The notes: generated by a model from the letters alone, not told the origin. A DNA stretch of 62,220 bases, filler included, from an uncultured bacterium (GCA_964429075.1; 9 parts of 9 records of this genome joined end to end with filler, not necessarily neighbours in it); one strand, 5' to 3'. Shown: positions 7,032 to 55,585, numbered from the whole stretch's first letter. A program made the numbers and translations.

Positions 7032-7131
7032 NNNNNNNNNNNNNNNNNNNNNNNNNNNNNNNNNNNNNNNNNNNNTTAATTAATTAANNNNNNNNNNNNN
7101 NNNNNNNNNNNNNNNNNNNNNNNNNNNNNNN
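7032..7131. other. artificial contig linker
   Basis: N44-TTAATTAATTAA-N44, stops in all six frames. Confidence 0.98.
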
Positions 7132-14146: not shown

Positions 14147-14246
14147 NNNNNNNNNNNNNNNNNNNNNNNNNNNNNNNNNNNNNNNNNNNNTTAATTAATT
14201 AANNNNNNNNNNNNNNNNNNNNNNNNNNNNNNNNNNNNNNNNNNNN
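14147..14246. other. artificial contig linker
   Basis: N44-TTAATTAATTAA-N44. Confidence 0.98.
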
Positions 14247-21240: not shown

Positions 21241-21340
21241 NNNNNNNNNNNNNNNNNNNNNNNNNNNNNNNNNNNNNNNNNNNNTTAATTAATTAANNNN
21301 NNNNNNNNNNNNNNNNNNNNNNNNNNNNNNNNNNNNNNNN
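21241..21340. other. artificial contig linker
   Basis: N44-TTAATTAATTAA-N44. Confidence 0.98.
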
Positions 21341-28289: not shown

Positions 28290-28389
28290 NNNNNNNNNNN
28301 NNNNNNNNNNNNNNNNNNNNNNNNNNNNNNNNNTTAATTAATTAANNNNNNNNNNNNNNNNNNNNNNNNNNNNNNNNNNNNNNNNNNNN
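28290..28389. other. artificial contig linker
   Basis: N44-TTAATTAATTAA-N44. Confidence 0.98.
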
Positions 28390-28416
28390 AGCTAACCTTT
28401 TTTCGCATTATGATGA

Positions 28417-28455
28417 TGTTACATATTGTAGACATAGTGTTACTGTAAATAGACA
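28417..28455. promoter_or_regulatory. two tandem TGT-N12-ACA boxes, candidate enhancer (UAS)
   Basis: TGTTACATATTGTAGACA (28417-28434) and TGTTACTGTAAATAGACA (28438-28455), both TGTTAC-N6-TAGACA, starts 21 bp apart. Confidence 0.6.
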
Positions 28456-28526
28456 AAAGGCATTGTTTTATTTTGTTACACATATATATTTCATTTGAAA
28501 CTAAACCTTTTTTTGATTTATATGTC

Positions 28527-28542
28527 TGGCATAAAGTTTGTT
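28527..28542 (+). promoter_or_regulatory. putative sigma54 (-24/-12) promoter
   Basis: TGGCATAAAGTTTGTT = GG-N10-GT (GT instead of GC at -12), about 33 nt upstream of ATG 28575. Confidence 0.6.
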
Positions 28543-28574
28543 TTAAGGAAACAAAAATTGCCGGAGGTGTATGT

Positions 28575-31238
28575 ATGAAGAAGAAAGGAATTACCCGCAG
28601 AGATTTTCTTAAGATAAGCGGTATTCTTGCATCAGCATCGTTTGTCAACATTAACTTTTTATCGAGGGTGGTGCGGGCCCAACAATCCTATTCTACTGGA
28701 GTTGTAGAGTATCACAACAGTACCTGTAAGATGTGTGTGAATTTCTGTGGAATCAGGGTAAAGACAGAAGATGGTATTCTCAGAGCAATCTATCCAAACA
28801 AAGACAAAAAAGACTACTACAACTGGGGAAATTGTACAAAAGGAATTTCTGGTATCTGGTCAACCTACAACCCCTACCGTTTAAAAAAGCCACTCAAACG
28901 CACCAATCCCAAAAAGGGTATTGATGAAGATCCTGGATGGGTAGAGATAGATTGGGAGGATGCACTCAACGAGGTGGCGAGTAAGATGGCAAGTATAATA
29001 GCAGACGATCCAAGGAAGATTATATGGTATCACGGACATGGGAAATACGTTATTAACGATGGGTGGATGAAGGCCTTTACAGCTGCTATCGGTACTCCAA
29101 GCATGGTTCACCGTACCACCGTTTGTGAAGGTGCAAAGCATGTTGCAGATGAGATTACATGGGGTGGTCATGAACCGTTACCTGATCTTCAGTATACCAA
29201 TTATCTGATAAACATGGGTGGTAATTATGCAGAGGCTGATCAGTGGGCACGCTGGCTCGATCATGCAACTATGGATGCAAAAGAGCGCGGGATGAAACTG
29301 GTAGTTGTAGAGCCAAGGGTAAGTAATCTTGGTGCCCATGCAGATGAGTGGGTACCGATCAGACCTGGCAAAGATGTACTATTTTTGCTTGCTATGGCAA
29401 GGGTGCTTATTGATGAAGGATTTGTTGATGAAGAGTTTCTTGTTAACTATACCAATGCGCCATATCTTATAAGAGAGTCTGATGGAAAGGTTGCAACAGA
29501 TCAAGATGGGAATCCTCTTGTCTATGATAAGGCGCAGTCAAAGATAGTGCCCTATGATGATGCTACAGATATTGCACTTGGTGGTGCCTATGAGGACAAC
29601 GATTATGGTAATGGCACAGTCAAGACAGCCTTTCAGAAGTTTAAAGACTACCTTGTAACAGAAAATATTACTCCGCAGAGTGTATCTGTAGACTGTGGTG
29701 TCCCGGCTGAACAGATAGAAAGGATCGCAAAGGAATTTGGTGAGGCTGCACAGATAGGTGCAACAATAACAATAGAGGGCCAGACCCTTAGATATCGTCC
29801 TGTATCTATATATACCTTCAGAGGACTCGCTGCAAAGCAATTCGGTGCTCAGAACTGTAGATCCTATCTGATTGTACTTATGCTGGTTGGTGCAATTGAT
29901 GCTGTAGGTGGTTTTAGGTTGCACCATCCAGGTAATGTTGATAAATATATGCAGCCCTCATCCTGCGAATATCCACCATCAAGGATTGACCTTAAAAAGA
30001 GTGCCTTTTTCCCGCATGGCACGCATGATGTTGCACAACAGGCACTCTTTTCAGTATTGAATCCAAGTCAATACGGTATAGACTATGAACCAGAGATGCA
30101 GATATTCTTTGCGACCAATAGACCTTTCTCTACATCGAATGCAGAGCTTCAGTTTGAGGCACTAAAAAAGACATACAATGTGGCAATTGAAATTTCAATG
30201 AATGAAACTGTATGGTTTGCAGATATTGTATTTCCTGATAAGACCTATCTCGAGGCATACGGCTACTATGGTGGGCGTTGGACACCTGTAAGCACCCATC
30301 ATACACTGCATTATCCAATAGTAAATACCTATAATCTGCCTTATCAAAATCTTGAGATAATGTTTGAGCTTGCAAAGAGGGCAGGTTTTCTTACAGGCTC
30401 AGGTGGTTTCCTCGACCAGATAAACAACAAATTTGGATTTTCTGATCCAAAATTTGATATAAATAAAGAGGACTATACTGCAAAGGATGCCTTCGATATC
30501 CTCTGGCAAAACAAGACAGGGCAGACCCTTGATGAGGGAATGAAGGAGGGATTTGGTGGAGCAAAGTTTACCACAATCGAAGAGAGATATATCGAGGGTG
30601 CAGAGAGTCATTTCAAAGGGCCGGGTAAACCAAAAATCCACTTTTACTGTGATGAACTTGTGGGAACTCAAGAAAATCTTTATAACCTCATGAATACAAA
30701 TACAGAGGCAGCACAGAACATTAAAAAGGCATATTCAACCTGGTATGAGGTGGACGAATCACAGGTAGAAGATTTAATCAGGTTGTATCTCTCACCATTT
30801 CCAAGAAAAGAACATGCATTCCCTGTGTCACATCAGAATGCAAAAGACTATCCATTTTACCTGATCACTTTTAAGAGAATCTATAGGACACAGAGTGGAT
30901 TCTGTAACTACAATCCAATGCTCTATCAGGTTGCACACGATTCAGACACAAATCGTGTCTGGATAAACCCAAAGACTGCAGAGCAGCTTGGTATTAAAGA
31001 TGGAGATACAGTTGTCATTGAGTCAAGGATAGGCAAGGTTGAAGGAGTGGCAAAACTGACACATTGTGTCCGTCTTGATACTGTTGCTGTTGCCTATCAC
31101 TATGGTCATTGGAGCGGTGGCTATCCATCCTGGGCACAGAAGGGTACTTGGATTAACAAGGTCCTGGAATACCACCCTGATATGCTTTCTGGTATGAACA
31201 ACTTTAATGATACAAAGGTTAAAATTTACAAGAAATAA
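28575..31238 (+). CDS. TAT-exported molybdopterin (bis-PGD) oxidoreductase catalytic subunit, DMSO reductase family
   Basis: TAT motif TRRDFLK, RBS GGAGG; FS0 motif CKMCVNFC...CTKG; PLKRTNPKKGIDEDPGWVEIDWEDAL; ADEWVPIRPGKD; ADIVFPDKTYLE; C-terminal WINPKTAEQLGIKDGD. Confidence 0.93.
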   Translation: MKKKGITRRDFLKISGILASASFVNINFLSRVVRAQQSYSTGVVEYHNSTCKMCVNFCGIRVKTEDGILRAIYPNKDKKDYYNWGNCTKGISGIWSTYNPYRLKKPLKRTNPKKGIDEDPGWVEIDWEDALNEVASKMASIIADDPRKIIWYHGHGKYVINDGWMKAFTAAIGTPSMVHRTTVCEGAKHVADEITWGGHEPLPDLQYTNYLINMGGNYAEADQWARWLDHATMDAKERGMKLVVVEPRVSNLGAHADEWVPIRPGKDVLFLLAMARVLIDEGFVDEEFLVNYTNAPYLIRESDGKVATDQDGNPLVYDKAQSKIVPYDDATDIALGGAYEDNDYGNGTVKTAFQKFKDYLVTENITPQSVSVDCGVPAEQIERIAKEFGEAAQIGATITIEGQTLRYRPVSIYTFRGLAAKQFGAQNCRSYLIVLMLVGAIDAVGGFRLHHPGNVDKYMQPSSCEYPPSRIDLKKSAFFPHGTHDVAQQALFSVLNPSQYGIDYEPEMQIFFATNRPFSTSNAELQFEALKKTYNVAIEISMNETVWFADIVFPDKTYLEAYGYYGGRWTPVSTHHTLHYPIVNTYNLPYQNLEIMFELAKRAGFLTGSGGFLDQINNKFGFSDPKFDINKEDYTAKDAFDILWQNKTGQTLDEGMKEGFGGAKFTTIEERYIEGAESHFKGPGKPKIHFYCDELVGTQENLYNLMNTNTEAAQNIKKAYSTWYEVDESQVEDLIRLYLSPFPRKEHAFPVSHQNAKDYPFYLITFKRIYRTQSGFCNYNPMLYQVAHDSDTNRVWINPKTAEQLGIKDGDTVVIESRIGKVEGVAKLTHCVRLDTVAVAYHYGHWSGGYPSWAQKGTWINKVLEYHPDMLSGMNNFNDTKVKIYKK

Positions 31239-31253
31239 TCAGGAGGTAAATAA

Positions 31254-31931
31254 ATGAAACTGGTAAGATTGATTGATACTACAAGGTGTATAGGCTGCAG
31301 GGCCTGTGTAGCAGCCTGTATGAATGAAAATTTTTATGTTGAAGGGAATCCCTGGAACTTTCTAAATGAGATTGAAGAGGGTGAATTCCCTGATGTAAAA
31401 AAGACCTTTGTACCCTTAAACTGCATGCATTGCGAGGAGCCGGCATGTAAAAAGGTCTGTGACGAGATTGGGGTTTATGCAATTACCAAGAACGAGCAGG
31501 GTGTTGTACTCATCGATTATGACAAATGTATAGGTTGCAGATACTGTGAAACTACATGCCCCTACAGTGTCCCACAATTTATAGACGAAGTGAAAGGACT
31601 TTTTGATAGTAAGACACCTTATGACGAGATACCAGATGATAAGAGGCATCCTGTTCATAGAAAGAGAGCTGGAGTTGTAGAAAAGTGTACATTCTGCTGG
31701 CATAGGATTGAGAAGGCGATAGAAGATGGAAAGCCAGAGTTAATCGGGGTTGAATTTGAGTATACACCTGCCTGTGACCTGGTATGTCCTGTAGGTGCAA
31801 GGGTGTTTGGTGACCTTGATGATCCTAACAGTGAGGTATCCAAAAAGATATCTGAGAAAAATGCAAAACCAATTAAAGAAGAGTTTGGTACAAAACCACA
31901 GGTCTATTATGTATTCGAAGGAGGAGAATAA
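31254..31931 (+). CDS. 4x[4Fe-4S] electron-transfer subunit (DmsB/NrfC/ArrB type)
   Basis: CIGCRACVAAC, CMHCEEPACKKVC, CIGCRYCETTCP, KCTFC...PACDLVCPVGARVFGDLDD. Confidence 0.93.
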   Translation: MKLVRLIDTTRCIGCRACVAACMNENFYVEGNPWNFLNEIEEGEFPDVKKTFVPLNCMHCEEPACKKVCDEIGVYAITKNEQGVVLIDYDKCIGCRYCETTCPYSVPQFIDEVKGLFDSKTPYDEIPDDKRHPVHRKRAGVVEKCTFCWHRIEKAIEDGKPELIGVEFEYTPACDLVCPVGARVFGDLDDPNSEVSKKISEKNAKPIKEEFGTKPQVYYVFEGGE

Positions 31932-31932
31932 G

Positions 31933-32244
31933 ATGAGATCTTTAAGGCTGGTAATAGCACTATTGATTGCTGTGACCTTTTCGTTTTATGCAGGTTGCGG
32001 CAAAGAAAAAGAGGCAGGTCCTTCACTTGAGACATACCACAAGATTCATAAAGAGGTAGGTTTAGATTGTACCTCTTGCCACAAAAAAGGGAAATATCCT
32101 GCACGGGATTTTATGCTAACAAGATATAAATTAGAAAAATCTGCAGAACTTGGAGTGATACCTGGTATCATAGATAAATATGTGTGTCTCGGGTGTCACA
32201 AAAAAGATAGTATAGGACCAGAGTGGTATGGAGATAGAAAATAA
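31933..32244 (+). CDS. small diheme c-type cytochrome lipoprotein
   Basis: ATG 31933 after GGAGGAG; lipoprotein signal ending YAGC; CTSCH and CLGCH. Confidence 0.8.
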   Translation: MRSLRLVIALLIAVTFSFYAGCGKEKEAGPSLETYHKIHKEVGLDCTSCHKKGKYPARDFMLTRYKLEKSAELGVIPGIIDKYVCLGCHKKDSIGPEWYGDRK

Positions 32245-32971
32245 GATGAGACACCAAGATACAACAAAAGACTCCTTTAAAGAGATGCTTGAACTTTGCG
32301 AAAACAGAAGTTCAATATACTGGTTTCTCTCAGAATTTTACAACAAAAAACCGACACAAGAGTTTATAGTAAAGATCAAAAAGAGTCTTGATAAACTGGC
32401 TGATGTTGAAGATGAGATAGAGGAATTAAAAGAGCTTCGTATAATAAAAGATTATGTAGATAAAATAAATGATGATTCATTGCTGGATCTTCAGGTGGCT
32501 TTCACAAGGCTATTTCGAGGAATAAAAAAGGGATACGGTCCACCTCCACCCTATGAATCGGTATATAGAGGCGAGAATCAGGTATATGGTATATTTACTG
32601 AGAAGGTAATGAAGTTTTATGGATCCTGTGGCTTTGGAGTCATCGACAATGAGGTAGGGCCGCAGGATCATATAACAGCAGAATTGAAGTTTTTATCAAT
32701 GCTGTGTTTTAAAGAGAAAGAGGCCTGGGAAGAATCCAAATACGATCTTTTAAAGTTCTGGTTAAAGAAGGAGAAGGATTTTATTGATCAGCACTTAGGG
32801 AGGTGGTTGTCTGATTTTTCAAATGCTGTTGTTTCATATGAGCATCCATTTTATTCAGCAGTAGTAAGACTTACAGAAGGATGGGTGAGTATGGACAGGG
32901 AATTTTTATCAGAGCTGGAAGATAATTTATTTACTGATGACAAAGAAAATGGCCCGGAGGAGAAACTATGA
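32228..32971 (+). CDS. TorD/DmsD family redox-enzyme maturation chaperone
   Basis: FTRLF, PPPYESVY, PQDHITAELKFLS, FIDQHLGRW. Confidence 0.9.
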   Translation: MEIENKMRHQDTTKDSFKEMLELCENRSSIYWFLSEFYNKKPTQEFIVKIKKSLDKLADVEDEIEELKELRIIKDYVDKINDDSLLDLQVAFTRLFRGIKKGYGPPPPYESVYRGENQVYGIFTEKVMKFYGSCGFGVIDNEVGPQDHITAELKFLSMLCFKEKEAWEESKYDLLKFWLKKEKDFIDQHLGRWLSDFSNAVVSYEHPFYSAVVRLTEGWVSMDREFLSELEDNLFTDDKENGPEEKL

Positions 32972-34227
32972 TGAAGAAACAATATCTTTTCTGTGTATTA
33001 ATCTTTATTTGTAGCTTAATGTTAGAGGGGATGGCTTTTGCAACCGATATTGACATTGGTTCTACAACTCTGTGGATGGCATACCAACAGGAGCGATATG
33101 GCACTAATGCAAATCTTTCCCCGATATATGAGTATTTTAATGTAAACAATGCAAAGCTCTTTGTTGACGGTCTGACTCTCAATCTTTCGTTATGGGGAAA
33201 TTTTCAGACCTATGACTGGTGGGAAGATGAACGAGCTGATGGACAGATAATGTACGGATATCTTAAGTATATAAATCCCGATATTGGATTAAAGCTAAAG
33301 GCAGGCAGGATTTTTGTAAATGCAGGAGCAGCAGCAATGATGGAGCAACTCGATGGGGTATATGCTTCCTATAGGGTAAAAAATGGTCCAAAGCTGGAAT
33401 TCTATGGTGGAGCTCAGATTAATGATAGAGACGGCTCAAGAAAGGGCGACTGGATGGCTGGCACAAGGATATCAAAGCCTTTTGGGTCAAATAAAGAGAT
33501 CGGACTTTCATACCTCTTTCAGAAAGAGAGCGAAAGGGTTAATTACAACAGGGTTGGACTTGATGGCTGGTACTATATAAGTGATGAATACAATCTAAAT
33601 GGATATCTCGCCTACGACCTTACATTAAATACTCTTGCTGATACAAGTATTAATTTTACTTATTTTCCATCTATTAACAATCTTAAATCAATAGATGTAG
33701 ACCTTGGATACAGAAGTACTTCTGCATTCTTGGGAAGTCAGTCATTACTATCTGTATTTGCCCTTGGAAATTATATAAATCCAAGGATTTATGCACTGTT
33801 TGATTTTCATAAATGGTCTATTATGCCCTCATACGAGGCAATGATCTATCTTGAAGAAGAGGGTATAGGGAACAGGTTGTCACTTAAGGTGTCAAGATTC
33901 TTTAAAGATGGAAAGTATTTAGCAATATTTAAAGTATCAAGATTGATGCAGACAGCAGAGACAAATTATACAGAACTTCGCTCGGCTTTACACGCAAATA
34001 TTGTTGATGGATTGGAATCTGATGTTGATATAATCTGGGATATTCGAGATGAGGGCAGTGAAGAGAAAGAGGCAGAAGAGGAGAAAGACCATGGTTTTGA
34101 AGCAGCGCTTTCTGGCAGGTATATAGTTAATGATAATTTTAATCTGAGCCTTGGAGTTAGTTTAACAGATGGATTTGAAAATGACTGGCAGTTTAAAGGT
34201 TTTGGTAAACTTGAAATAGTTTTTTAG
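32968..34227 (+). CDS. putative outer-membrane beta-barrel (porin of a porin-cytochrome complex)
   Basis: Sec signal peptide (AFA), alternating aromatic/hydrophobic strands, LKAGRIFV and QLDGVYASY motifs, C-terminal GKLEIVF. Confidence 0.75.
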   Translation: MMKKQYLFCVLIFICSLMLEGMAFATDIDIGSTTLWMAYQQERYGTNANLSPIYEYFNVNNAKLFVDGLTLNLSLWGNFQTYDWWEDERADGQIMYGYLKYINPDIGLKLKAGRIFVNAGAAAMMEQLDGVYASYRVKNGPKLEFYGGAQINDRDGSRKGDWMAGTRISKPFGSNKEIGLSYLFQKESERVNYNRVGLDGWYYISDEYNLNGYLAYDLTLNTLADTSINFTYFPSINNLKSIDVDLGYRSTSAFLGSQSLLSVFALGNYINPRIYALFDFHKWSIMPSYEAMIYLEEEGIGNRLSLKVSRFFKDGKYLAIFKVSRLMQTAETNYTELRSALHANIVDGLESDVDIIWDIRDEGSEEKEAEEEKDHGFEAALSGRYIVNDNFNLSLGVSLTDGFENDWQFKGFGKLEIVF

Positions 34228-34241
34228 TATGGAGTCTGATA

Positions 34242-34919
34242 ATGAAGAGATATTTAATAACCATTAGCTGTACAATTGTTTCTTGTTTTCTTTTGACAAA
34301 TATAGGTCTTGCAAAGAGTGATGTTAAAGAACTCTTTAGTCAGCACAAAGAAAATATAAGAAAAGGAAATACCTGTTTATCATGTCATGATAAAGAGGAG
34401 ATTAAAAATCTAATACATACATCACAGTGGATAGAGGTCCATAAGAATAGCGCAATTGGTAATGAAGATACATGTAAAAAGTGTCATACTCAGGAATACT
34501 GTACAAATTGTCATTCCTATAAACAGGCAGTTAAACCTTCAGATAAGGCCTTTGATGATGTAAAACCCTCTTTTCAACATAGAGGAGATTGGCTTGGGAG
34601 GCATTCATTAGAGGCAGAAGCAGACAGTGCCAGGTGTTATAGATGTCATACTCAGGAGTATTGTGCATCCTGCCATCCAAAAGTAGATGCACCTCATCCA
34701 ATAGGAGAGGATTGGGTCTATAATCAACATGGAGAGAAGGCAAGACGAAACATTGGTACGTGTGCATCCTGTCATGAAGATGGAGCTAAATCAAACTGTA
34801 TAACCTGCCATGCCCCGGGAGGAAAGGGTGGAAATCCCCATCCTGCTGGATGGTCAGGTGGAAGACTCGGACTTGATAGAAGTAAAGATAAGCCCTGTTC
34901 GTATTGCCATAAAGACTGA
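34242..34919 (+). CDS. periplasmic octaheme c-type cytochrome
   Basis: Signal peptide; 8 CxxCH (CLSCH, CKKCH, CTNCH, CYRCH, CASCH, CASCH, CITCH, CSYCH); repeated H..W...H..A....CxxCH units. Confidence 0.9.
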   Translation: MKRYLITISCTIVSCFLLTNIGLAKSDVKELFSQHKENIRKGNTCLSCHDKEEIKNLIHTSQWIEVHKNSAIGNEDTCKKCHTQEYCTNCHSYKQAVKPSDKAFDDVKPSFQHRGDWLGRHSLEAEADSARCYRCHTQEYCASCHPKVDAPHPIGEDWVYNQHGEKARRNIGTCASCHEDGAKSNCITCHAPGGKGGNPHPAGWSGGRLGLDRSKDKPCSYCHKD

Positions 34920-35129
34920 AATATTTGCTAAAACATATTGAATGAATTTAGCTGTCATGTAATATTAAAAAGTATCTGTGATATCTGGAGATTTATTATA
35001 AATCCTTTTAGTATGGTAAATAATCTCGAGTATGTGTATGTTTTTGTTGAATACAAATAGCTAATGATGAGAATGTGAATACATATCTATAACAATATAG
35101 TTTATGTTTTCACTAATCCTGATTCATAT

Positions 35130-35229
35130 NNNNNNNNNNNNNNNNNNNNNNNNNNNNNNNNNNNNNNNNNNNNTTAATTAATTAANNNNNNNNNNNNNNN
35201 NNNNNNNNNNNNNNNNNNNNNNNNNNNNN
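35130..35229. other. artificial contig linker
   Basis: N44-TTAATTAATTAA-N44. Confidence 0.98.
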
Positions 35230-41940: not shown

Positions 41941-42040
41941 NNNNNNNNNNNNNNNNNNNNNNNNNNNNNNNNNNNNNNNNNNNNTTAATTAATTAANNNN
42001 NNNNNNNNNNNNNNNNNNNNNNNNNNNNNNNNNNNNNNNN
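41941..42040. other. artificial contig linker
   Basis: N44-TTAATTAATTAA-N44. Confidence 0.98.
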
Positions 42041-48729: not shown

Positions 48730-48829
48730 NNNNNNNNNNNNNNNNNNNNNNNNNNNNNNNNNNNNNNNNNNNNTTAATTAATTAANNNNNNNNNNNNNNN
48801 NNNNNNNNNNNNNNNNNNNNNNNNNNNNN
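48730..48829. other. artificial contig linker
   Basis: N44-TTAATTAATTAA-N44. Confidence 0.98.
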
Positions 48830-55485: not shown

Positions 55486-55585
55486 NNNNNNNNNNNNNNN
55501 NNNNNNNNNNNNNNNNNNNNNNNNNNNNNTTAATTAATTAANNNNNNNNNNNNNNNNNNNNNNNNNNNNNNNNNNNNNNNNNNNN
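55486..55585. other. artificial contig linker
   Basis: N44-TTAATTAATTAA-N44. Confidence 0.98.

Follow-up and report, generated by a model that had tools for sequence, protein, structure and literature searches.

A catalytic molybdoenzyme sharing one operon with a porin–cytochrome pair was found in our literature searches, which covered passages of main texts, only for the Dms system. DmsEFAB is a conduit for the reduction of dimethyl sulfoxide (DMSO) (PMC13501091, available part), and DmsEFAB(GH) of Shewanella oneidensis is an extracellular DMSO/iodate reductase. Other described systems close to the locus reported here are, on the side of the conduit, the Pcc (porin–cytochrome) systems such as OmbB-OmaB-OmcB of Geobacter sulfurreducens and, on the side of the enzyme, ArrAB(C)(D) with ArrXSR, ArxB2ABCD with ArxXSR, PsrABC and PhsABC. 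The present locus is a six-gene operon located at positions 28575 to 34919 of a stretch of DNA from an uncultured bacterium, the whole of which (62,220 nucleotides) is referred to as the window. It is composed of two modules, an enzyme module of four genes, alpha (the molybdenum [Mo] catalytic subunit), beta (the iron–sulfur [Fe-S] subunit), gamma (a dihaem cytochrome lipoprotein), and delta (a chaperone), and a conduit module of two genes, the barrel (an outer-membrane beta-barrel) and the octahaem (an eight-haem cytochrome). All six open reading frames (ORFs) listed in the initial annotation of this DNA were recovered by ORF calling and by Pfam and NCBIfam searches. The conduit is of a kind already known, and its fusion to an enzyme has one printed analogue, DmsEFAB, which the initial annotation had also put forward as the nearest precedent and which remains the nearest in printed logic. 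In the reading that we prefer, tentatively and with somewhat less than even confidence, the enzyme works on a haem network that crosses the outer membrane and acts on the As(V)/As(III) couple, the reducing direction being favoured.

As in DmsEFAB(GH), an enzyme with a Mo-bis(pyranopterin guanine dinucleotide) (Mo-bisPGD) subunit exported by twin-arginine translocation (Tat), an Fe-S subunit, a chaperone, a barrel, and a multihaem cytochrome are encoded in one operon without an NrfD- or DmsC-type anchor. The two differ in that the operon here includes an extra subunit, the dihaem lipoprotein, and in that the enzyme genes come first and the conduit genes last. Membership of alpha in the Dms family was rejected on its scores with the DmsA-type models, which were far under the cut-offs (TIGR02166, 153.4 against 777.7 bits; PRK14990, 89.6 against 1600 bits). 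DmsEFAB is extracellular; for the present enzyme, a location at the surface is a proposal.

For the MtrAB/DmsEF conduit, 28 predicted motifs and 10 haems are printed (PMC4245776, available part), compared with 22 strands and 8 haems here, and the view of the initial annotation that the pair is not MtrAB-like thus stood. It proved not to be an odd new conduit, however, because its counts fall within the Pcc range given in the same text (18–22 strands and 5–14 haems, with 8 haems in OmaB of Geobacter) and the barrel belongs to a large family (see below). The likeness to the Pcc of G. sulfurreducens, in which a small porin-like barrel lies beside an 8-haem cytochrome, is one of strand and haem counts. 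The two differ with respect to the outer lipoprotein, as no OmcB-type protein with 12 haems is encoded in the operon and the sole haem lipoprotein is the 2-haem gamma, which belongs to the enzyme module even in operons of the archaeal type. In the available text of PMC4245776 the string 'molybd' does not occur, and no molybdoenzyme is therefore named there among the pcc-associated genes.

The barrel and its octahaem partner

The barrel gene (32968..34227, +) codes for a protein of 419 amino acids (aa), and the octahaem gene (34242..34919, +) for a c-type cytochrome of 225 aa with a Sec signal, 8 CxxCH motifs, and no conserved lipobox. No significant sequence match to either protein was found in the Protein Data Bank (PDB), and the barrel matched no Pfam or NCBIfam family. 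The AlphaFold2 (AF2) model of the barrel, based on an alignment of 89 rows, was all-beta (pLDDT 93.6, pTM 0.84) and had no plug domain; from the DSSP list, a total of 22 strands were counted by taking 46-50 and 52-63 as one strand. Outer-membrane barrels were the top structural matches (Z values from VIA-align), including Cir (TonB-dependent receptor barrel; Z 19.6, 349 residues aligned, root-mean-square deviation [rmsd] 3.9) and FimD (usher pore; Z 19.4). MtrB (6r2q_B) appeared at rank 22 (Z 16.0, 342 aligned, rmsd 4.8), a general resemblance only. By Foldseek, 338 matches to the model were obtained at E<=0.001, with FimD, MOMP, and AlgE in the lead. As modelled, the 419-aa protein is a beta-barrel, in agreement with the initial annotation, and a plug-less 22-strand barrel of such width would normally hold a protein in its lumen.

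A word-index search with the barrel yielded only itself and one relative with 49% identity, but with a profile of seven homologues 1051 representatives were obtained at E<=1e-3, a number that fell to 652 at 1e-10 and to 187 at 1e-30. Those that carry a name are called 'hypothetical protein'. Counting the own genome, matches to the family turned up at E<=0.001 in 7 of the 61 genomes sampled, and at E<=1e-8 in 17 genomes out of 401. A multihaem gene was located directly beside the barrel gene in 17 of the 18 loci read other than the window, and in the remaining locus the barrel gene abuts a contig end. The neighbouring genes encode either a single protein with 8, 12, or 13 haems or a 5-haem protein with others after it. 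C-terminal extensions with CxxCH motifs were found in two of the 150 barrel relatives listed, P0012 (724 aa, 4 CxxCH) and P0014 (943 aa, 5 CxxCH), which may be natural barrel–cytochrome fusions or read-through gene calls.

The relatives of the octahaem are mostly longer than the octahaem itself. Among the 120 relatives listed, 6 carry 8 CxxCH motifs, 3 carry 10, and 111 carry 11–13 in 300–399 aa. In the relatives with 11–13 haems (about 345 aa), many of which start with a lipobox-like Cys, the octahaem corresponds to the C-terminal portion, which bears eight haems. The 8 CxxCH motifs of the octahaem are invariant in an alignment of 42 rows.

The complex of barrel (residues 25-419) and octahaem (residues 25-225) was modelled with ipSAE scores of 0.75, 0.79, and 0.79 (median 0.79), compared with 0.01 for the best of three controls. 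At least 88% of the contacts agreed between the runs, the pLDDT of the partner was at least 68, and the interface was formed by alternate lumen-facing residues of nearly every strand of the barrel. In the calibration of this score, 116 of 157 solved complexes and 2 of 215 mismatched pairs came up to the mark, counts that are only rough when own alignments are used. The binding of the octahaem inside the barrel, for which a multimer prediction had been suggested in the initial annotation, is thus supported by the model, and the octahaem would then be the wire through the barrel. Taken as modelled, the pair fits a minimal Pcc-type outer-membrane conduit better than a new kind of conduit.

The host genome, a metagenome-assembled genome (MAG) of 282 contigs and 1.54 Mb with a completeness of 70.8%, includes a second barrel-like cluster on contig C111 (L064:210-5027), in which a 413-aa ORF without a family is accompanied by genes for an 18-CxxCH protein and for a 13-CxxCH lipoprotein, the latter a long-form relative of the octahaem.

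The molybdoenzyme, its relatives and its gene context

Alpha (28575..31238, +; 887 aa) is a Mo/W-bisPGD catalytic subunit (PF00384, 86.1 bits; PF01568, 78.9 bits) with the Tat motif TRRDFLK, an FS0 motif C51-x2-C54-x3-C58-x28-C87, and the Cys ligand C184. Beta (31254..31931, +; 225 aa) is a ferredoxin subunit with four [4Fe-4S] clusters (Fer4_11 and related Pfam families), and gamma (31933..32244, +; 103 aa) is a dihaem c-type cytochrome lipoprotein with 2 CxxCH motifs, a lipobox with the signal ending in FYAG before the Cys, and a weak match to Cytochrome_C7 (22.6 bits, below 24.8). Delta (32228..32971, +; 247 aa) is a TorD/NarJ-type Tat-proofreading chaperone (PF02613, 80.3 bits; NCBIfam TorD, 77.1 bits, below 132).

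Among the NCBIfam models alpha scored highest with PhsA (257.2 bits; cut-off 694), and with ArrA it scored 164.7 bits (cut-off 1600); the best PDB chains were ArrA (6cz7, 153.9 bits) and Thermus PsrA (2vpw, 130.4 bits). Beta scored with ArrB (156.5 bits; cut-off 450), QrcC (139.1 bits), and DsrO (127.5 bits), all under the cut-offs. In the alignment with ArrA, C184 of alpha corresponds to C193, HGHGKY is found in place of RGRY, and R/T/H are found at the positions of H189/S190/K198, while the GHG loop aligns with FGHGT of Thermus PsrA. These signatures are shared by most of the 120 relatives listed (GHGKY in 108 and HRTT.CE in 117). A protein search gave 2378 hits at E<=1e-20 among 7999 candidates scored, which is a superfamily-wide count as this threshold admits other superfamily members. 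Eight relatives are 62–72% identical to alpha and many more are 48–53% identical and bear generic names only; some are labelled Sulfuricystis multivorans, Chromatiaceae, or Photobacterium proteolyticum. Five of the relatives gave an NCBIfam profile similar to that of alpha, with PhsA at 249–301 bits. In a quick tree of 41 relatives, alpha, its counterpart in the nearest relative genome (G001), P0160, and P0162 formed one subclade (SH-aLRT 100) beside branches of Aquificaceae and archaea.

Membership in each of the related enzyme groups was considered and rejected. The motifs printed for Arr and Arx are (R/K)GRY (residues 163-166 in strain ANA-3) and XGRGWG, respectively (PMC6549141, section 18, and PMC13685797, available parts). 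Arr shares with the present enzyme ArrA (Shewanella sp. ANA-3, 6cz7) as the best solved relative, ArrB as the best NCBIfam match for beta, and a TorD-type chaperone, and the ArrAB operon of Shewanella also lacks an anchor, being fed by the cytochrome CymA (PMC2762525, available part). The difference lies in the absence of (R/K)GRY, the ArrA and ArrB scores under their cut-offs, the replaced residues, the separate clade, and the dedicated dihaem subunit. Arx is alike in superfamily neighbourhood, in the style of regulation by X, S, and R proteins, and in a G-x-G backbone at the motif position, but XGRGWG is absent and no gene for an ArxC (NrfD-type) subunit is present in this or the related operons. 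Psr and Phs share the best NCBIfam model and the GHG loop, but here a cytochrome c subunit is encoded instead of the NrfD-type anchor PsrC/PhsC, and the PhsA score is far from its cut-off. Judged by its sequence, alpha represents a coherent unnamed family, related to Arr, Arx, and Psr, with its own active-site signature and its own clade. No name for this family was found in print within the literature searched, and nothing on this enzyme was found in the literature on Sulfuricystis, the labelled holder of a 51% homologue. By tblastn of the Mo subunit against plasmids, a single record with 27.9% identity was obtained.

The absence of NrfD, PsrC, DmsC, and NapC genes had been noted in the initial annotation, together with non-coding DNA at both ends of the operon. 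The latter observation failed, as the operon occupies one contig (C66, window 28390-35129, about 6.7 kb) with only 185 nt on the 5' side and 210 nt on the 3' side before the artificial joins to other contigs. The absence of an anchor is unreadable from the window because this contig ends just beyond the operon, but it does hold for the related loci. A scan of collections of species genomes and metagenomes with the alpha alignment yielded seven loci with about 62–70% identity, including a contig of G001, contigs titled Ferroglobus sp., Archaeoglobaceae, Geoglobus sp., and Aquificaceae (two), and one metagenome contig, the only locus obtained from the metagenome scan. The order of alpha, beta, gamma (dihaem), and delta (TorD) is kept in all seven. 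The gene at the gamma position carries 2 CxxCH motifs in every case; a lipobox Cys is present in G001 and the four archaeal-type loci and absent in the two Aquificaceae loci. Neither an NrfD nor a NapC gene was found in the flanks read at any of the seven (G001, five complete four-gene operons, and one cut in the chaperone gene).

Outside G001, the enzyme module stands without a conduit. The operon ends after delta in all five orthologous operons with a complete end, and in one more locus the sequence is cut inside delta. No NrfD gene, barrel, or multihaem gene was detected in the flanks read at these six loci, one of which lies on a contig of 213 kb, so that the ends of that operon are real. 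The initial annotation had asked whether orthologous operons use an NrfD anchor and lack the porin: the porin is indeed absent from the five complete ones, and so is the anchor. Thus, at all loci read the enzyme module comes without a quinone-reactive anchor. The conduit, found with it in two genomes only (that of the window and G001), is a lineage-specific addition. As far as its sequence tells, alpha-beta-gamma is an oxidoreductase of the periplasmic type without a quinone-reactive subunit, and its redox partner would therefore have to be the pool of c-type cytochromes, reached through gamma. In the host genome, with the completeness given above, no NrfD (PF03916) was found, and the only match to the NapC/NirT (CymA) family was one of 22 bits inside a 9-haem ORF.

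G001 has the same six genes in the same order (alpha 71%, barrel 45%, and octahaem 54% identical), the operon being split across two contigs by a break inside delta. A periplasmic binding lipoprotein, a histidine kinase, a sigma-54 response regulator, and MobA are encoded upstream in the divergent direction, and MoaA followed by unrelated genes downstream of the octahaem. The operon contains no NrfD or NapC gene; the two NrfD genes (PF03916) of this genome are on a different contig. The search for synteny proposed in the initial annotation was thus answered in part, since the six-gene fusion recurs in G001, but no other fused locus was found among the loci read and the pair stands alone in another genome, G024 (97% complete). 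There the barrel and octahaem genes are inside a molybdenum cofactor (Moco) cluster (contig G024:C105, L008, 7341-12823) with the order MoaA-octahaem-barrel followed by MobA-MoaE-MoaC/MoaB, and no orthologue of the present Mo subunit is encoded. A more distant alpha homologue (52%) in genome G157 is on a contig that extends no further than the Fe-S gene; the kinase and regulator of this genome resemble those of G001 only as paralogues do (33–38%), and the Mo enzyme occurs in one of the six genomes of that phylum.

The locus of G024 raises the possibility that the two modules are neighbours by chance, that is, that the conduit was already within a Moco cluster, the Mo operon and its regulators were inserted beside it, and the two now share a transcript but serve separate purposes, one in extracellular electron transfer and the other in an oxyanion reaction fed by the cytochrome pool. 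Such a history would agree with the same frame of MobA and MoaA around a larger block in G001, with the widespread and autonomous occurrence of the barrel–cytochrome pair, and with the orthologous Mo operons that occur without a conduit. We consider it unlikely, since the barrel start overlaps the delta stop by 4 nt and this overlap is kept in two genomes with proteins only 45–71% identical, and since c-type haems are the interface of both modules. The conduit inside the Moco cluster of G024 is itself odd, and loss of the Mo block would explain it equally well.

The substrate, for which the initial annotation had made no proposal, was approached through the gene context of the relatives. The periplasmic binding protein of G001 is most similar to ArrX of Chrysiogenes arsenatis (6x6b; 177 bits, E 4.8e-51), followed by AioX (111.8 bits) and PtxB (79.7 bits). 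Its alignments show the Cys typical of the arsenic-sensing subfamily (AFICTGAY) to be conserved, along with the pocket His and Asp. With the adjacent histidine kinase and sigma-54 response regulator, the arrangement resembles ArrXSR. According to the available text of PMC5908839, this Cys is missing from PhnD, binding by ArrX takes place at 1 uM for arsenate and at 150 uM for phosphate, and the ligand of an X protein is the substrate of the enzyme to which it belongs. In two archaeal-type operons (L020 and L022), a divergent upstream gene codes for the arsenite exporter ACR3 (444 and 447 bits against a cut-off of 282.8), and downstream lies a gene of the ArsR family; one of the two loci also has a MerA fragment. 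Together with ArrA and ArrB as best PDB and NCBIfam matches, this context suggests that the substrate of alpha is probably an arsenic oxyanion. A membrane protein of about 277 aa, rich in His and without a Pfam or NCBIfam family, was observed convergent to the four-gene operon at three archaeal-type loci (L020:6548-7381, L022:6130-6963, and L018:4711-5478, all on the minus strand), at two of which it adjoins the ArsR-family gene. This protein may be a transporter or a partner so far overlooked.

Substrates other than arsenic have to be weighed against this assignment. The enzyme might reduce species of sulfur, selenium, or antimony (polysulfide, elemental sulfur, thiosulfate, tetrathionate, or thioarsenate), and an insoluble or surface-bound substrate would explain the conduit. 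PhsA as the best NCBIfam model for alpha and for five of its relatives, the GHG loop shared with Thermus PsrA, and the lack of both the Arr and the Arx motif point in this direction, and ACR3 also exports antimonite. This account appears distinctly unlikely to us, however, as every PhsA score is far under the cut-off of 694, as no PsrC/PhsC anchor, rhodanese, or sulfur gene was found in the flanks read, and as the sensor encoded beside the nearest relative belongs to the arsenic-oxyanion subfamily with the Cys kept.

The direction of the reaction is a separate question. A periplasmic reductant (arsenite, as in Arx and Aio, or another) may be oxidised, with the electrons passing through gamma and the octahaem to an acceptor outside the cell, such as Fe(III)/Mn(IV) oxide, a mineral that acts like an electrode, or another cell as partner. 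A layout coupled to cytochrome c and lacking an anchor is typical of periplasmic dehydrogenases. Orthologues are found on Aquificaceae contigs, Arr and Arx enzymes are reported to be bidirectional in vitro (PMC13685797, available part), and sensors of the X-S-R type also govern arsenite oxidases (PMC5908839). On the other hand, the X protein of G001 is nearer to ArrX, the arsenate binder, than to AioX, and periplasmic oxidation coupled only to an outside acceptor would not separate charge at the inner membrane. By its potentials, moreover, As(V)/As(III) is a poor donor for ferric oxides. We therefore regard this oxidative direction, too, as having little probability.

Proposed electron flow across the outer membrane

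The preferred account of an arsenic-type enzyme on the haem network of the conduit would work as follows. Quinol would be oxidised by a separately encoded complex, for which the host genome offers a candidate on contig C129 (L065:2381-4876, -), where genes for a Rieske protein, cytochrome b, subunit IV, and a pentahaem cytochrome c lie in a row; by its composition this cluster could be a quinol:cytochrome c oxidoreductase linking quinol to the periplasmic haem pool. The periplasmic haems would pass the electrons to the octahaem and to gamma, which may also exchange electrons with each other, and gamma, as the presumed port of the enzyme to c-type cytochromes, would pass them through beta to the Mo site. 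The As(V)/As(III) couple would thereby be placed on the same haem network as the crossing of the outer membrane. The reducing direction, that is, respiration of arsenate on ferric minerals, is favoured because the sensor is nearer to ArrX and because quinol-fed reduction would conserve energy at the inner membrane. Two roles are conceivable for the conduit. It may supply an enzyme that gamma keeps on the outside of the cell, much as in DmsEFAB, or it may act alongside the enzyme by reducing the ferric mineral that carries the arsenate. Many further multihaem genes are present in the host genome.

The first of these options can be extended to a surface enzyme that is tethered by its dihaem lipoprotein, fed by the smallest known kind of porin–cytochrome wire (22 strands and 8 haems), and respires mineral-bound arsenate, keeping the arsenite outside. 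The host genome holds BamA and a full cluster resembling gspC to M of a type II secretion system, with which surface display would be possible, and we rate this extended form as improbable.

Several observations weigh against the preferred account. The fused layout was found in only two genomes, and because the pair stands alone in G024, the adjacency may be historical and the coupling is plausible only. Homologues of the Mo, Fe-S, or TorD proteins were detected by BLASTP within about 8 kb at none of 13 further barrel loci. The score of the modelled complex may come in part from likeness to the solved MtrAB complex. The arsenic context was seen in two lineages, G001 and the mutually related L020/L022, and no arsenic genes are present at the Ferroglobus locus or at either Aquificaceae locus. 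An ArrX-like gene was not found at E<=1e-10 in the host genome, which is 70.8% complete and contributes a flank of 185 nt in the window, and the kinase, regulator, MobA, and MoaA of G001 have matches there at the level of paralogues only. Alpha lacks the printed motifs of both arsenic enzymes, and PhsA outscores ArrA among the NCBIfam models. Finally, no energy would be conserved by a purely periplasmic enzyme whose sole exchange of electrons is with the outside. Accordingly, the substrate, the direction, the location of the enzyme, and the coupling itself are put forward here as proposals.

The route by which microbes reach arsenate sorbed on iron minerals is a practical question for the release of arsenic into water. 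To our knowledge, the Arr enzymes described so far work in the periplasm, on arsenate in solution. Should the coupling be real, the operon provides a concrete and testable mechanism, in which an arsenic-type molybdoenzyme is placed on the haem network of an outer-membrane conduit, and it would be the second example, after DmsEFAB of Shewanella, of a catalytic molybdoenzyme linked to a porin–cytochrome. If the enzyme in addition reduces arsenate at the surface, it would be the arsenic counterpart of extracellular DMSO respiration, with a new enzyme family and a new route of arsenic mobilisation. The operon also draws attention to two large unnamed families, the clade of dihaem-linked Mo enzymes and, with 1051 representatives, the 22-strand barrels that pair with cytochromes. 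Should the adjacency be incidental, the two modules are an ordinary pair and the interest stays with the enzyme family only.

Operon packing and the surrounding contigs

The six genes are closely packed, with spacings from alpha to the octahaem of 15, 1, -17, -4, and 14 nt, and a ribosome-binding site of the GGAG type precedes five of the six. Promoter-like sites (13, against 20.3 in shuffled sequences) and terminator-like sites (3, against 4.0) showed no excess within the operon stretch. In a public run of a hot springs metagenome, possibly the source sample of the window, contigs span the passage from delta to the barrel (30035-33045) and the junction of barrel and octahaem (33783-34305), and no contig of this run extends past either end of the operon contig. 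The packing suggests that the six genes are co-transcribed. Loose ends of a contig in public run X1 were noted at 31547 and 31781, within the Fe-S gene, and suggest a related second variant of this gene in that sample.

A sigma-54 -24-like element, TGGCAT-N5-TTGT, was seen at 28528-28543, 47 nt before the ATG of alpha, and its equivalent in G001 is TGGCAC-N5-TTTA (L015:4178-4193), so that a -24-like TGGCA[TC] lies 47–50 nt before the start of the Mo gene in both genomes. A sigma-54 promoter for the operon was nevertheless rejected, as the -12 element is weak and unconserved (TTGT in the window, TTTA in G001).

The window (1-62220) consists of nine contigs of the MAG, C62 to C70, ordered by length and separated by 100-base spacers of N bearing TTAATTAATTAA, with the joins at 7032-7131, 14147-14246, 21241-21340, 28290-28389, 35130-35229, 41941-42040, 48730-48829, and 55486-55585. 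It is therefore unsafe to read a gene neighbourhood across the joins. An upstream gene of 835 aa and a downstream 13-CxxCH protein of 1436 aa are located on contigs other than that of the operon and are not established neighbours. The 1436-aa protein is encoded on contig C67 (35254-41509), followed by a 392-aa ORF without a Pfam match and a cytochrome c assembly protein (PF01578). On contig C69 (48858-54692, -), an ORF of 1944 aa with TcdB-N, SpvB, FG-GAP, and RHS-repeat families was found, which corresponds to a giant protein of the RHS/YD type.

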